Assembly (NCBI GenBank): GCA_033648345.1
Contig: GCA_033648345.1_4121.1
Origin: a phage
Length of the DNA stretch: 64,000 bases
Strand: one strand, 5' to 3'
In this document: positions 47,835-64,000 of the stretch, piece by piece
Numbering within the stretch: position 1 is the stretch's first letter
How the letters are laid out: each line of letters begins with the position of its first letter
Notes under the pieces: generated by a model
What the model was told of the DNA's origin: nothing
What the model saw: the letters and a program-made list of their open reading frames with translations, nothing else
The model's database searches: none
Position numbers and translations under genes: made by a program

Positions 47835-47870
47835 AAAAATCCAGTACTATTATAGTACTGGATTAATTTT
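47835..47870. terminator. bidirectional terminator between convergent arrays
   Basis: ccagtac-N7-gtactgg hairpin flanked by A- and T-runs. Confidence 0.6.
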
Positions 47871-48993
47871 AATTATCTAAGCCACCAATTACACTGAACT
47901 GTGTGGTAACGTCTGAATTATTATCTATGTAAGTTCTTCTACCAACATAATATAGTTGTCCTTTAGCTTGAATAAAAGTTACGGTCCCTGTATTGAATGT
48001 TATAATATCATTGTATGTAATGTCAGGTGGTAGTGCTGCTGATAACGCAGTAACTTTACTTAATGCAGCACTAGCACTACCATTTATACCAGCAGCAATA
48101 CTACCAGTACCATAGAACTTATTATCTTTACCAATGAATACGTTGGCTGATGCTTGTGTAGCTGATGTTATTGCCTTACCAATTTGGAATGCGGTTCCTA
48201 TGGTGTATGGTGTGCTCCTGGCAGCGTCTATGCTTTGTGTATATCCATCCCCTAGCTGACCATTAACTTTGTCACCACATGAGTATAGAGTACCATTGTG
48301 GCTGTATATGATCCCACGGTTAGAGAAGCTAACAGCTTCTGCATTAGTCCATACTGGTGCGGTGTATGAGTTTACACGACTAGCGGTAGTTCCTAGACCT
48401 AGTATACCATATGTGTTATCACCACATCCAAACCATTGTCCAGAACTGTTTTGATAGAACACTGAACGTTCTGTTGATTCCATGCGTACAGCATCCACAG
48501 CACCACTTTTAACGAACGAAGTTGATGAGGATGTAGTACCAGTACCCAATGCACCATAAGTGTTTGTACCAATCGCATATATTGATCCTAGTGGTGTCAT
48601 AACACGTATGCAGTTATATCCCAATTGAACTTTACATTCAAATAGGTTGTCCCATATTTCAGGAACAGCAGAAAATAAATTTGTAATTTCGAACCATGAT
48701 GTTGTCGAACCAGTTAATCCTATACTGCTTTTGTTTCCTAAAATGAAAACAGTTTTGTCCTTCTTAATTATCCATGATGATAGGAAACCTATCTCACAGC
48801 TATGAACATTTGATTCTATTTGGGTAATATAATACTTAACTGTGTTATCACCCATGAATGCCGCAGCACCGGATGCAAAAAGGTTTCCAGTTTGTTTATT
48901 TAAAATGTAGTTATTGTTTCCATATACACTAACATCATAAGAACTTTCTTGTTTTTCGTTCCCATAATCAAATAACAATACGAAAGGTAACAT
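47869..48993 (-). CDS. RCC1-like repeat beta-propeller protein, array member 1
   Basis: MLPFVLLFDYGN N-terminus; repeats IYAIGTNTYGALGTGTT / WFGCGDNTYGILGLGTT / LYSCGDKVNGQLGDGYT. Confidence 0.75.
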   Translation of the reverse strand: MLPFVLLFDYGNEKQESSYDVSVYGNNNYILNKQTGNLFASGAAAFMGDNTVKYYITQIESNVHSCEIGFLSSWIIKKDKTVFILGNKSSIGLTGSTTSWFEITNLFSAVPEIWDNLFECKVQLGYNCIRVMTPLGSIYAIGTNTYGALGTGTTSSSTSFVKSGAVDAVRMESTERSVFYQNSSGQWFGCGDNTYGILGLGTTASRVNSYTAPVWTNAEAVSFSNRGIIYSHNGTLYSCGDKVNGQLGDGYTQSIDAARSTPYTIGTAFQIGKAITSATQASANVFIGKDNKFYGTGSIAAGINGSASAALSKVTALSAALPPDITYNDIITFNTGTVTFIQAKGQLYYVGRRTYIDNNSDVTTQFSVIGGLDN

Positions 48994-49070
48994 GATAAAA
49001 TCTCCTTGTGTTATACTTTATTTAATCATTTTATAATGTACAATTTTACAGCGATTTAATTGAGGTACTC

Positions 49071-49721
49071 ATGAATAAAAGAAGTAAGTTCTATCAAGAA
49101 TATTTCACTAAACAGAAACGATTCACAAAAAAATACTTTACATCATCCCACCGACCAGTTGCAAGTTACAAACGTCCTAATACTAACTATCTTACTGGTG
49201 GCAAGTTTAGTGCAAAGTTCGAATTACTTATGCGTGAAAAGAATATCAAGATGCATTACGCAGAGACGAGAAAAAACTCATCAATTATTTGTTCTGATTT
49301 TCTTGAGTACGGTTGCTTAACTTATAAATTCAATGATGTATATTTGTATATTGATGTTGATTGTAACAGTACTCTTATGTTTGAGATTTCAATTCACCCA
49401 AATCACAACCGTTATATAAACATTAACTTGATTGATAAAGTACTGATTGGTATATCTAGTACTGATGGTGGTGGATTTGAATTTATTGCTTCAAAATATG
49501 ATGAAGATTTCGTACTTTACCCAGTACTTGATGATGTGAAAGATATACTCAATTCATTAAAAGGAAGTCAATACAAATTATCTGAAGAACAGCTATTTCA
49601 GTACTCACTTATTCATGATGATATCGAGATATACTTAGAGTGTGCGAGAATATTGGAGTATCTTTATAATGAACTAACAACAACTGGTAAAGTGACAGCA
49701 TTCACATTATATAATATGTAA
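49071..49721 (+). CDS. hypothetical protein, EE-x-F-Q-Y-S motif family, embedded in minus-strand array
   Basis: ORF in track; SEEQLFQYSLIHDD. Confidence 0.55.
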   Translation: MNKRSKFYQEYFTKQKRFTKKYFTSSHRPVASYKRPNTNYLTGGKFSAKFELLMREKNIKMHYAETRKNSSIICSDFLEYGCLTYKFNDVYLYIDVDCNSTLMFEISIHPNHNRYININLIDKVLIGISSTDGGGFEFIASKYDEDFVLYPVLDDVKDILNSLKGSQYKLSEEQLFQYSLIHDDIEIYLECARILEYLYNELTTTGKVTAFTLYNM

Positions 49722-49728
49722 AAGAAAA

Positions 49729-61998: not shown

Positions 61999-62061
61999 AA
62001 TTCCCTCCTTTATTCATTATACTATATTTAATCAAAAAGAAAAGCCAGTACTCATTTAATT
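61999..62061 (-). promoter_or_regulatory. array cassette (half hairpin)
   Basis: tataat and aggagg conserved. Confidence 0.5.
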
Positions 62062-63207
62062 TTAACGAGGTATAACTATTTTTTTGAATAATCCAGTATT
62101 TCCTGCATTTTCTTCTTCATATGGAATTGTACCCATACCAGCAGTTCTGCCACCATTCCCTGAACCATACAGTTCTCCATTCTTAATCATGAATGTTATC
62201 ATATAACCATGTGTCATTTTATCATATGGAACTGGTTCAGTTATATTATTACATGCTCGCCATGTACTAATAACACTAGAGTTCGTTATACCATCACCTG
62301 ATGCGTTTCCTCGACCAGCGAAATACCATATCCCACCTGCTCTAACGTGTGCTTCATAATTAGAACCACCTATGTAATCAATCGCAGTACTAGGAATACT
62401 AGAAGCTGGTATCTTTGTGATTGTTCTAAGACTGTTAATAGTGCCATTAGTGCCATCACCCAACTGTCCATATATTTGTGAACCGAATACATATAGCCCA
62501 TCACTCTTTAATACGTAATTAGCACTATATGCATTTTCTGAATTTATCTGTAATACTCCAGTAGTAACAGTAGTCAATGTGGTAGTTGTACCAGTCGAAC
62601 CAATACTAGATTTTTTCCCACTGTACTTTAATGTTCCATCATTGTATAATACAAATGAAGCATTATCAGCGGTTACACCAATATCTTTAACATCAACTTC
62701 TGGTGTCAATGTCAGTACTGATACTCTTTGGTCAACAGCCCCAGTAAAAACTTCACCGTTGTTATTGTAACCCATCTTATATAATTTATTATCTATTGTT
62801 AATAATAATGTAACGCCGTTTCCTATAACTATTTTACTATATGTGTCATTCACATCATCAAAAATACCAAGTATTTCTGTCCATACACGATAAGTAGTAT
62901 TAACACCACGATAGATTTGAGCACCAGTACTCCACCATGTGCCATCATTTTTACGTACTAATATTCCGTGTGTATCACCAGTAGTCCAAAATTCCTTTAC
63001 ATCAGTTAAACATAAAACCCACTCTTCAACTATAGTAGGAGAACTACTACCAGTACCTAATTGATAGTAAAAATTATGCCCTCTGCCATATAATCTTCCG
63101 TCTTCTAATAAAATAAACACATTATTCTGTAAAACTTTTACCATCTTTATACCAACTGGCACAGGTGCTTCATTCCCACAATCGAACATTCTAACAAAAG
63201 GTAACAT
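62062..63207 (-). CDS. RCC1-like repeat protein, array member 12
   Basis: start at internal MLPFVRMFDCGN (63207); YGRGHNFYYQLGTGSS / FGSQIYGQLGDGTNGT. Confidence 0.75.
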   Translation of the reverse strand: MLPFVRMFDCGNEAPVPVGIKMVKVLQNNVFILLEDGRLYGRGHNFYYQLGTGSSSPTIVEEWVLCLTDVKEFWTTGDTHGILVRKNDGTWWSTGAQIYRGVNTTYRVWTEILGIFDDVNDTYSKIVIGNGVTLLLTIDNKLYKMGYNNNGEVFTGAVDQRVSVLTLTPEVDVKDIGVTADNASFVLYNDGTLKYSGKKSSIGSTGTTTTLTTVTTGVLQINSENAYSANYVLKSDGLYVFGSQIYGQLGDGTNGTINSLRTITKIPASSIPSTAIDYIGGSNYEAHVRAGGIWYFAGRGNASGDGITNSSVISTWRACNNITEPVPYDKMTHGYMITFMIKNGELYGSGNGGRTAGMGTIPYEEENAGNTGLFKKIVIPR

Positions 63208-63277
63208 ATTCCCTCCTTTATTCATTATACTATATTTAATCAAAAATAAAAGCCAGTACAGAGTACTGGCATAGTAT
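63208..63277 (-). promoter_or_regulatory. array cassette
   Basis: gccagtacagagtactggc hairpin plus tataat and aggagg. Confidence 0.6.
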
Positions 63278-64000
63278 TCAAAAAGGTAAATCAATTTGCT
63301 TAGTAATAATAGTATCTAACGGTATTGAACACAATGAGAAATTCTTTCCACCCGTATTTTTAGGATTATATCCATTCATCCATACATTATTACCTTCGTA
63401 AAATGTATTCCAGTATAAAGACCCACTATATCGTGTATTCGAATTGAACGATGTAAAATTGAATTCTTGAAATGCTGTAAAATATGGAAGGGAACTTGAA
63501 CTACTTCCCGTAAATGGGGTATGCCCAGTTGCTATTAGTTTGTTTGTATCTGCATTAATTAAAAATACAACACTAGTCGAATAGTCCAACGAATCAGGAT
63601 GATATATATTACTCATATCACCTATAGTAAAACCAACATCAAAAACTTTAATATGTGCACCACTACCAGCAAAAGTAGTTCCAGTTGCATATATTTTATT
63701 ATCAGATGTTATCATTACAAAACCAACACCAGAAACAAAACAGCATTTTATATCATAAGATATATCATCAAACAACGGAACAAATGTGGTTGCATCACCC
63801 GATGTTGCTTTAACTTGAAAGCTGTTATTTGAACCTGAACCATATACAGTTCCATCGTTTTTAATCTTAAACACTGTATCACCAAGGTAACCGCCAAATA
63901 TATTATCCACATTAGTGTCAAGTACAGTCCACGCTGAAACATAATTTTTATGTCCTAAACCTAATGCACCACTTCGATTCCATCCTCTTCCATAAAGTGT
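63278..64000 (-). CDS. RCC1-like repeat protein, array member 13 (5' end beyond window)
   Basis: reading frame stays open upstream of the track start to the window edge (...YGRGWNRSGALGLG...). Confidence 0.6.
   Translation of the reverse strand, partial: TLYGRGWNRSGALGLGHKNYVSAWTVLDTNVDNIFGGYLGDTVFKIKNDGTVYGSGSNNSFQVKATSGDATTFVPLFDDISYDIKCCFVSGVGFVMITSDNKIYATGTTFAGSGAHIKVFDVGFTIGDMSNIYHPDSLDYSTSVVFLINADTNKLIATGHTPFTGSSSSSLPYFTAFQEFNFTSFNSNTRYSGSLYWNTFYEGNNVWMNGYNPKNTGGKNFSLCSIPLDTIITKQIDLPF

Follow-up and report, generated by a model that had tools for sequence, protein, structure and literature searches.

A tandem array of tagged RCC1-like propeller genes in a jumbo phage contig and its possible role as a repertoire of virion-docked binding modules

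Tandem arrays of genes encoding RCC1-like proteins have been described in several jumbo phages. Homologues of gp1, a virion protein of phage GAP32, were reported to occur in multiple copies in 121Q (234–238, 240–242, and 244–248; 13 in total) and in PBECO4 (PMC5259590), eleven similar RCC1-like proteins were recognized in phAPEC6, where a role in DNA ordering was speculated (PMC7247149), and 13 tandem copies were found in Salmonella phage Munch (PMC8273493). Furthermore, two RCC1-like proteins are among the most divergent proteins between two phages of the same species (PMC13070987), and tandem arrays in jumbo phages have been seen as a route of genome expansion (PMC5646251). Dozens of GenBank records annotate genes of these arrays, with the label "regulator of chromosome condensation." Here, a stretch of 64,000 nucleotides of phage DNA (contig GCA_033648345.1_4121.1 of assembly GCA_033648345.1; hereafter, the window) was analyzed, in which 13 minus-strand RCC1-like genes, named R1–R13, extend from position 47869 to the window edge.

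The thirteen paralogs at 47869–64000 had been pointed out in an original prediction made from the letters alone, and the listing of open reading frames (ORFs) confirmed them. That prediction placed them in a T4-like accessory region and could match them to no described phage system. The nearest records are instead Asteriusvirus Escherichia jumbo phages of about 350–385 kb—121Q, PBECO4, phAPEC6, WPEC3, and CMSTMSU, the "Rak2-like" group—and, for the same reason, assignment to a nucleus-forming (Goslar-type) phage was dropped. Since the array has been published for 121Q, phAPEC6, and Munch, it is a known trait of these phages—characterized in close relatives as to description and proteomics, though not as to function—and the window represents a new combination of known members. 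Relative to the Asteriusvirus/Rak2-like arrays (121Q gp234–248, phAPEC6 gp549–gp010, PBECO4, WPEC3 CDS097–115, and Munch), the family, genomic position, flanking genes, and upstream cassette are all the same, whereas the gene set differs, with R5 common to phAPEC6 and 121Q but not found in WPEC3. What the present analysis adds is a modular N-terminal tag, breakpoints located in the cassettes, the near-neutral character of the proteins, and a +1 frameshift retained under purifying selection. The reading favored here, to which a probability of roughly 0.4 is assigned, is that the tag docks interchangeable binding modules on a common virion site, the array being a recombination-shuffled, late-expressed repertoire of accessory adhesins or decoration proteins.

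The tag comprises about 12 residues with the consensus M-L-P-F-x-R-[ML]-x-x-Y-G-N. Between it and the propeller lies a linker rich in proline, 8 of 12 members having Pro at position 17. Mean pairwise identity between members is 0.78 over residues 1–12, 0.24 over residues 13–60, and 0.21 over the remainder, in line with the earlier remark that diverged bodies carry near-identical N-termini. Two classes can be distinguished, namely class A (MLPFARMVKYGN; R2, R4, R5, R8, and R11) and class B (MLPFVR(L/M)FDYGN; R1, R3, R6, R7, R9, R10, and R12). The tag codons vary synonymously (TTT/TTC, GCA/GCG/GCT, AGA/AGG, TTA/CTA, TAT/TAC, GGG/GGA, and AAT/AAC), indicating that the peptide itself is maintained. 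This variation, together with retention of the peptide in other genera under different nucleotide sequences, weakens the idea that the tag is conserved merely as a DNA or RNA signal or through recent gene conversion. In both AlphaFold2 models that were built (R5 and R3), the tag is the least confident segment, with a predicted local distance difference test score (pLDDT) below 50 for residues 1–12, and lies outside the sheet core; a short helix is predicted at residues 5–10 in the R5 model. A role as the closure strand of the propeller was rejected on account of this low confidence and position outside the sheet, and because the tag also heads Kelch, LamG-like, and glycine-rich proteins. Inspection of the region behind the tag for an L/I-x-E protease site found none that is consistent among members, positions 13–20 being variable and lacking a conserved Glu.

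Related N-termini are found well beyond the window. GAP32_001 begins with MLPFSRIIQYGN, Yersinia phage fHe-Yen9-04 has five tandem genes starting with MLPFPIIS... or MLPFPVIVKYGN, and Xanthomonas phage XaC1 has MFPIPIISKYGN. A related start, MFPIPSLF..., is present in GAP31_232 (Cronobacter phage GAP31, 8980–10683), annotated as a "tail protein" of an unrelated 148-kb myovirus of the Vequintavirinae; this protein consists of an RCC1-like domain (RLD) and two Big_2 Ig-like domains, matches a Hoc-like protein in the PDB, and is encoded by the last gene of the baseplate/tail-fibre module. Bodies of other kinds are also preceded by the tag: GAP32_002 carries it on a ConA/LamG-like body (phrog_6011, "virion structural protein"), and 121Q_243, identical to an unannotated phAPEC6 ORF, combines the tag and a complete upstream cassette with a glycine-rich body. 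When 2.9 million viral contigs were scanned without bias for tag-encoding DNA, only eight stretches were found, all on contigs of about 350–380 kb, and the ORFs behind the tag encode RLDs, Kelch propellers (70 bits against a cut-off of 25), Laminin_G_3 (48 bits against 27.6), a Gly_rich_2-like protein (sub-threshold), and a 667-aa RLD–Kelch fusion. Given its occurrence on so many body types, the tag is a promiscuous N-terminal module placed on beta-rich domains of the ligand-binding type, and does not belong to the RCC1 fold. Mixed tandem arrays with the tag on RCC1, Kelch, ConA/LamG-like, and glycine-rich bodies were observed in other Rak2-like jumbo phages, including a contig of the length of Serratia phage BF; these arrays also hold unclassified tagged bodies of 170–285 aa, and in one genome of 378 kb the tag is present on at least 11 proteins other than RCC1-like ones.

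With respect to the bodies in the window, 8 of the 13 members (R1, R5, R6, R8, R9, R10, R11, and R12) score above the curated Pfam cut-off for PF00415 or PF13540. R2, R4, and R7 match only the RCC1-like-domain model PF25390 (E = 2e-8 to 7e-18), whose cut-off of 150 bits is never reached, the highest array score being 88.9. For the partial R13, the matches are weak and sub-threshold (PF13540, 17.8 bits with a cut-off of 22; PF25390, E = 0.043), and its inclusion is based mainly on blade motifs and position. R3, for which Pfam gave no match, is a full-length member of phrog_4219 in a PHROG profile search (E = 1.3e-15). No match was found in NCBIfam for any protein tested. The AlphaFold2 model of R5 (predicted template modelling score, 0.83; mean pLDDT, 77.6) retrieved seven-bladed RCC1-like propellers in Foldseek, namely UVR8, RPGR, HERC1/2, and RCC1, with template modelling (TM) scores of 0.6–0.79 and E-values down to 1e-20; the TM scores against UVR8 and HERC1 are 0.7–0.79 across about 400 columns, and a PDB sequence search also gives HERC1 and RCC1. 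The model of R3 is of low confidence (pLDDT 49.5; shallow alignment), but its best matches are still RCC1-like propellers, at a TM score of about 0.5, and it also resembles seven-bladed fucose lectins. Profiles, the R5 structure prediction, and the fold search thus bear out the proposal that the array genes encode RCC1-type seven-bladed propellers, as judged at the level of predicted structure, and the profile search yielded the RCC1 matches whose absence would have told against it. The three blade motifs on which the proposal had drawn are present as well (LYSCGDKVNGQLGDGYT in R1, YGSNNFYQFGLGNS in R8, and YGRGHNFYYQLGTGSS in R12). Paralogs are about 20–24% identical to each other, with the exception of R8 and R11 (72%). 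In comparison with eukaryotic RLDs (RCC1, the HERC1/2 RLDs, RPGR, and UVR8), the seven-bladed fold and the repeat signature G-x-N-x-x-G-Q-L-G are held in common, whereas the phage proteins are only 16–21% identical to them, near-neutral, and equipped with the extra N-terminal tag; no guanine nucleotide exchange or DNA-condensation role of the phage proteins is supported. RLDs are also embedded in long tail-fibre proteins of other phages.

Eight members (R1, R2, R4, R5, R6, R9, R11, and R12) are preceded by a regulatory cassette, whereas the other four (R3, R7, R8, and R10) are translationally coupled to the gene upstream. The cassette consists, in order, of a hairpin (GCCAGTAC-n3-GTACTGGC) with a T-run, TTAAATATAGTATAAT, AAGGAGG, and the beginning of the coding sequence, ATGTTACCTTTTG...; the hairpin is partial before R11 and absent before R1, whose cassette is degenerate. 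In composition, the cassette joins a terminator hairpin, a promoter-like element, and a ribosome-binding site to the tag. A terminator scan gave 20 sites against 7.3 ± 2.8 expected, the strongest being the cassette hairpins. An independent repeat search recovered 11 copies of a 59-nt repeat spanning the ribosome-binding site and tag, and six copies of the hairpin element. Within the window, the cassette 16-mer is found solely upstream of array genes. A sigma-70 promoter in the cassette was considered and is unsupported: sigma-70-like sites are not enriched (69 found against 84 expected), and one cassette alone passes the scan. TAAATA is found at −31 to −36 in all eight cassettes, and in phAPEC6 a T4-late-like (T)ATAAATA lies 20–75 nt upstream of 16 of 24 genes detected by mass spectrometry (MS) against 9 of 26 others (Fisher p = 0.046; background expectation, 0.02 per window). 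The annotation of phAPEC6 includes a late sigma factor (gp237c), and a gene for a sigma-factor homologue (phrog_351) is present in the window. Taken together, the TAAATA pattern and the sigma-factor genes make late transcription of the array genes plausible, as far as sequence motifs can suggest.

The position of the cassettes coincides with that of the differences between relatives. The closest phages cover the adjacent 16 kb at 74–92% with about 98% identity, but only 25–45% of the array. R1–R4 and R6–R10 (9 of 13) are 99–100% identical to genes of the near-identical phage WPEC3, whereas R5 is replaced in that phage, where its best match is 36% identical; R5 is 86% identical to phAPEC6 gp006 and to its 121Q counterpart. 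Among database proteins, the one closest to R5 (99%) is encoded on a 357,661-bp contig bearing the label Escherichia coli O157, so that the window may stem from a phage genome that was deposited as part of a bacterial assembly. WPEC3 lacks R11 and R13, and its counterpart of R12, CDS106, stands at a different array position. The blocks common to WPEC3 end at 53560, 54735, 55960–56072, 60806, 61962, and 63278, and all of these boundaries fall in the cassette or the tag, at most about 70 nt away from an ATG. Thus, the array is a turnover hotspot. Breakpoints of this kind are known from the hyperplastic regions of T4-like phages, where they fall in the composite terminator/promoter cassettes called PeSLs (PMC2839356, PMC4122927). 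The array cassettes resemble PeSLs in having a hairpin plus a promoter-like element flanking variable genes and breakpoints between relatives at the cassette, but belong to another phage lineage, run through the ribosome-binding site into 36 coding nucleotides (the tag), and may contain a late rather than an early promoter. With respect to distribution, tblastn detected the RCC1-like family in 68 phage records, as a single copy in GAP32, Serratia phage BF, and Erwinia Eneladusviruses, and at 6–12 matched places per genome in Asteriusvirus, Salmonella phages Munch and 7t3, and Klebsiella phage fENko-Kae01.

The complete WPEC3 locus has 18 members over 20.3 kb (CDS097–115), bordered by small membrane-protein paralogues on one side and by an array of roughly 60-aa genes on the other. 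From this it follows that the window probably cuts off four to five further genes. The block amounts to 16–20 kb, or about 5% of a 350-kb genome. The genes had been described as consecutive and of about 375–450 aa; the count of 13 held, but one plus-strand ORF interrupts the series, and intact members measure 369–449 aa when counted from the conserved MLPF methionine. With these methionines taken as the true starts, R5, R7, R9, and R12 are shorter than their longest ORFs. R4 (a 264-aa ORF) and R6 (an ORF without MLPF) are full-length genes broken by a +1 frameshift.

In R4, the 264-aa ORF (52706–53500) is continued in the +1 frame by about 135 codons that reach 52311. The same split recurs in WPEC3, 121Q (238/237), and phAPEC6 (gp007/008), at 81% amino-acid identity. 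The ratio of nonsynonymous to synonymous substitution rates (dN/dS) is 0.24 for the upstream part and 0.22 for the downstream part, against 1.44 and 0.81 in control frames (with stops). The downstream part contains no Met, and so has no independent start. Skipping the C of a conserved CGG-A restores the canonical G-x-G-x-N-x-x-G-Q-L-G hairpin; the predicted repaired product has the junction peptide ...GVGAQVVGQLGNGITTNTNK and aligns colinearly across the junction with an intact orthologue of 394 aa (62% identity). R6 requires a +1 shift at a similar GGA-CGG-A site (about 55895–55905), and gp007, the R4 orthologue of phAPEC6, was detected by MS (PMC7247149). R4 could therefore be a case of programmed +1 recoding at a rare codon, a candidate that the sequence comparison brings forward.

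Association of the array products with virions has been seen in three phages. In phAPEC6, MS detected gp003, 005, 006, 007, 009, 010, 549, and 551 among 62 virion-associated proteins, with 1–5 unique peptides and 3–17% coverage for each (PMC7247149 Table 1). An ORF scan showed that all eight carry the MLPF tag; confirmation of an RCC1-like body is restricted to gp006 and gp007, which are orthologues of R5 and R4, respectively, and the record notes say RCC1 for all eight except gp551. The supplement reporting liquid chromatography–tandem MS of JP4 virions contains three MLPF-tagged proteins (matched by tag sequence), including the R5 orthologue JP4_581, with one peptide each and at about 200-fold below a major structural protein. 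GAP32 gp1 was likewise detected by virion MS, at trace level (PMC5259590).

The original prediction had suggested either a receptor-binding or decoration repertoire or a set of injected effectors, and these two classes are still the most plausible. Under the favored reading, the tag would act as a docking peptide that attaches each module, made late and in low copy, to one common virion site, and the propellers would serve as accessory adhesins or lectin-like surface modules. Whole bodies would be inserted, deleted, or swapped between co-infecting phages through homologous recombination in the cassette and tag, so that related phages would carry different sets. The domains associated with the tag are of types common as binding modules (ConA-like, Kelch, Ig-like Big_2, and the RLDs of long tail fibres). 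A precedent is provided by anchor-branch systems: docking peptides of 7 or 11 residues occur in K1E/K1-5/SP6, and four such peptides are found in the jumbo phages PhiK64-1 and RaK2 (PMC6872550), with docking through this type of conserved N-terminal peptide having been validated experimentally (PMC13352976). In these systems (K1-5/SP6, KP32/KP34, Menlow, and PhiK64-1/RaK2), as with the array tag, a short conserved N-terminal peptide (7–11 residues in the anchor-branch proteins) is placed on unrelated, exchangeable binding proteins, and the principle is used by the sister group of Klebsiella jumbo phages. However, the array bodies are monomer-type propellers or lectin domains rather than trimeric depolymerase spikes, number 13–18 per genome, and are encoded outside the tail module.

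Several points weigh against the docking interpretation. The MS signals are at trace level in both phAPEC6 (1–5 peptides) and JP4 (one peptide), and ThyA, a RecA-like protein, and SSB appear in the same phAPEC6 table at similar counts; contamination by abundant late proteins is thus possible, and the data indicate presence in the preparations rather than stoichiometric incorporation. The array genes are also remote from the structural modules, and a monomeric propeller of 40 kDa is not what is typically seen in receptor-binding proteins. The promoter class is ambiguous, being either weakly sigma-70/PeSL-like or late. A docking partner with a T4 gp10-like branching domain was not found by Pfam among the phAPEC6 baseplate and fibre proteins gp244, 247, 248, 253, 256, 210, and 211, a search for which HMMER/Pfam is insensitive. 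In addition, the virions of CBB and RaK2 are "hairy" yet these phages lack the genes (PMC5259590), and the propellers are therefore not the hairs themselves.

An alternative is that the products are packaged inside the capsid and ejected, as are the internal proteins of T4, with the tag as a capsid-targeting sequence, and that they act in the cell after injection, for example against host defences. The T4 capsid-targeting sequence is roughly 10 residues long, and the array shares with the T4 proteins that bear it a conserved N-terminal peptide of about 10–12 residues, diverse bodies, a hyperplastic locus with PeSL-like cassettes, and a low virion copy number; the short helix predicted at tag residues 5–10, the T4 gp21-like prohead protease of the phage, and the inner body of phAPEC6 (PMC7247149) would fit as well. 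This explanation is nevertheless regarded as unlikely, given that no consistent L/I-x-E protease site follows the tag, that the bodies are large neutral binding folds (40-kDa lectin-type RLD, Kelch, and ConA-like domains) and not small basic proteins, that the GAP31 homologue is encoded in a tail-fibre module and contains Ig-like Big_2 domains, and that RLDs occur in the tail fibres of other phages; the kinds of domain thus speak for an outward rather than an inward orientation. Comparably improbable is the proposal that the proteins do not belong to the virion at all, but are abundant late cytoplasmic or lysis-released soluble binders—masking receptors on debris or binding host glycans, for instance—with the MS signals representing carry-over and the tag serving a partner protein, folding, or turnover. 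Trace signals comparable to those of clearly non-structural enzymes of the same preparation, the single peptide per protein in JP4, and the location of the genes outside structural modules are what such proteins would produce. Independent laboratories, however, detected 8 of 12 phAPEC6 array products, three tagged JP4 proteins, and GAP32 gp1; a tagged RLD homologue lies within a tail module; and conservation of the tag across genera and on unrelated folds suggests one shared partner, which also counts against this explanation.

Far less probable are two further explanations. The view of the proteins as organizers of DNA condensation or of the inner body follows the database name, which was transferred from eukaryotic RCC1, and the phAPEC6 paper, and draws on the inner body and virion-associated copies of that phage. 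The array proteins are poor in charged residues and rich in Gly, Asn, Ser, Thr, and aromatic ones (pI 5.2–9.0; K+R 4.6–7.9%), and such near-neutral proteins are not basic DNA binders. Moreover, the chromatin role of RCC1 needs Ran and nucleosomes; to our knowledge, bacteria have no Ran, nucleosomes, or chromatin. The tag also heads lectin-like and Kelch domains, and the gene set varies between near-identical phages, which would be unexpected for a core packaging function. The name "DNA condensation protein" is thus probably wrong. The array might also be selectively neutral "filler" that arose as genes duplicated in tandem once the capsid had become larger (Hua et al., 2017), an idea proposed for jumbo phages (PMC5646251) and in keeping with evident duplication, such as that of R8 and R11. 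It is hard to reconcile with a dN/dS of about 0.23 between lineages at a dS of 0.5–0.6, with ORFs that stay intact despite about 20% identity between paralogs, and with strict conservation of the tag and cassette across genera, and is accordingly given very little weight.

A more far-reaching form of the docking interpretation, in which the tag is a universal Rak2-like docking signal that loads shuffled, phage-specific lectin-like modules on one class of virion site to form a combinatorial adhesin coat, and in which at least one member is made via a programmed +1 frameshift at a rare CGG codon, is tentative and somewhat doubtful. If true, it would imply a plug-and-play surface repertoire much larger than the known branched receptor-binding protein systems. 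A tag functioning as a docking peptide would lend itself naturally to the display of selected binding domains on jumbo phages and could help explain differences in host range or niche between therapeutic Asteriusvirus isolates. The array is of interest in any case as a large block that is under purifying selection, yet differs between near-identical phages.

Table 1. Coordinates of the array members, cassettes, and adjoining features in the window.
Feature	Coordinates	Strand	Description
Terminator hairpin, bidirectional	47838..47864	both	12-bp stem, T-runs on each strand; between the convergent membrane-protein array and R1
R1	47869..48993	−	RCC1-like propeller, 374 aa, tag class B variant MLPFVLLFDYGN; PF00415, 50.2 bits; 99% identical to WPEC3 CDS115
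216-aa ORF	49071..49721	+	phrog_34359, E = 3e-56; sole opposite-strand interruption of the array
R2	49754..50890	−	RCC1-like propeller, 378 aa, tag class A MLPFARMVKYGN; PF25390, E = 1.8e-8
R2 cassette (example)	50891..50954	−	Hairpin, T-run, TTAAATATAGTATAAT, AAGGAGG; repeat families D1, D6, D7
R3	50961..52310	−	Divergent member, 449 aa, tag class B, translationally coupled to R4; phrog_4219, E = 1.3e-15
R4	52311..53500	−	Full-length member split by conserved +1 frameshift; tag class A
R4 cassette	about 53501–53565	−	Equivalent to R2 cassette
R5	53580..54755	−	RCC1-like propeller, 391 aa, tag class A; PF25390, E = 5e-25; orthologue of phAPEC6 gp006; not in WPEC3
R5 cassette	54756–54822	−	Equivalent to R2 cassette
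R6	54827..56006	−	Full-length member, +1 frameshift near 55895–55905, tag class B; identical in WPEC3 CDS105
R6 cassette	56007–56070	−	Equivalent to R2 cassette
R7	56077..57186	−	RCC1-like propeller, 369 aa, tag class B, coupled to R8
R8	57195..58397	−	RCC1-like propeller, 400 aa, tag class A; R11 paralogue, 72% identical; repeat families D3, D4, D8
R9	58408..59538	−	RCC1-like propeller, 376 aa, tag class B; PF13540, 29.2 bits
R9 cassette	59539–59611	−	Equivalent to R2 cassette
R10	59614..60795	−	RCC1-like propeller, 393 aa, tag class B, coupled to R11
R11	60805..61998	−	RCC1-like propeller, 397 aa, tag class A
R11 cassette	about 61999–62050	−	Equivalent to R2 cassette
R12	62062..63207	−	RCC1-like propeller, 381 aa, tag class B; 93.8% to WPEC3 CDS106
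R12 cassette	63208–63270	−	Equivalent to R2 cassette
R13	63278..64000	−	Probable RCC1-like member cut by window edge; C-terminal 240 codons present; 94% to CMSTMSU

The plus-strand ORF that interrupts the array (Table 1) has no Pfam match, and occupies the equivalent array position in all relatives examined (121Q_233, phAPEC6 gp011c, and WPEC3 CDS114). The sign of the GC skew flips at about 48 kb, the point at which the coding strand switches. Adjoining the array and converging on it, seven tandem plus-strand paralogs (45394–47833) encode hydrophobic, apparently multi-pass membrane proteins of 104–123 aa with basic C-termini; they are conserved in phAPEC6 (gp012c–017c), 121Q (224–232), and WPEC3 (CDS116–122), and one tested member belongs to phrog_19454. 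On the far side of the array, beyond the window, relatives have another tandem array, made up of about 20 short genes (roughly 60 aa; WPEC3, 4807–9209; 121Q, 23359–27195).

In the phAPEC6 record (MK817115.1, 1–22000), array ORFs at 2434, 3614, 6063, and 7325 are unannotated or mis-started. The genes gp550 and gp551 at the end of that record recur at its start (the ORF at position 3 and gp001), suggesting that the sequence as deposited overlaps or repeats at its ends.

The genes examined upstream of the array in the window (16341–18358, 23133–24101, 25108–25992, and 36513–38553) include three in PHROG families named "virion structural protein," one of them a lone minus-strand gene of 385 aa, along with the sigma-factor homologue mentioned above and two HNH endonucleases. 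Structural genes are thus scattered in the window, matching what was reported for phAPEC6.

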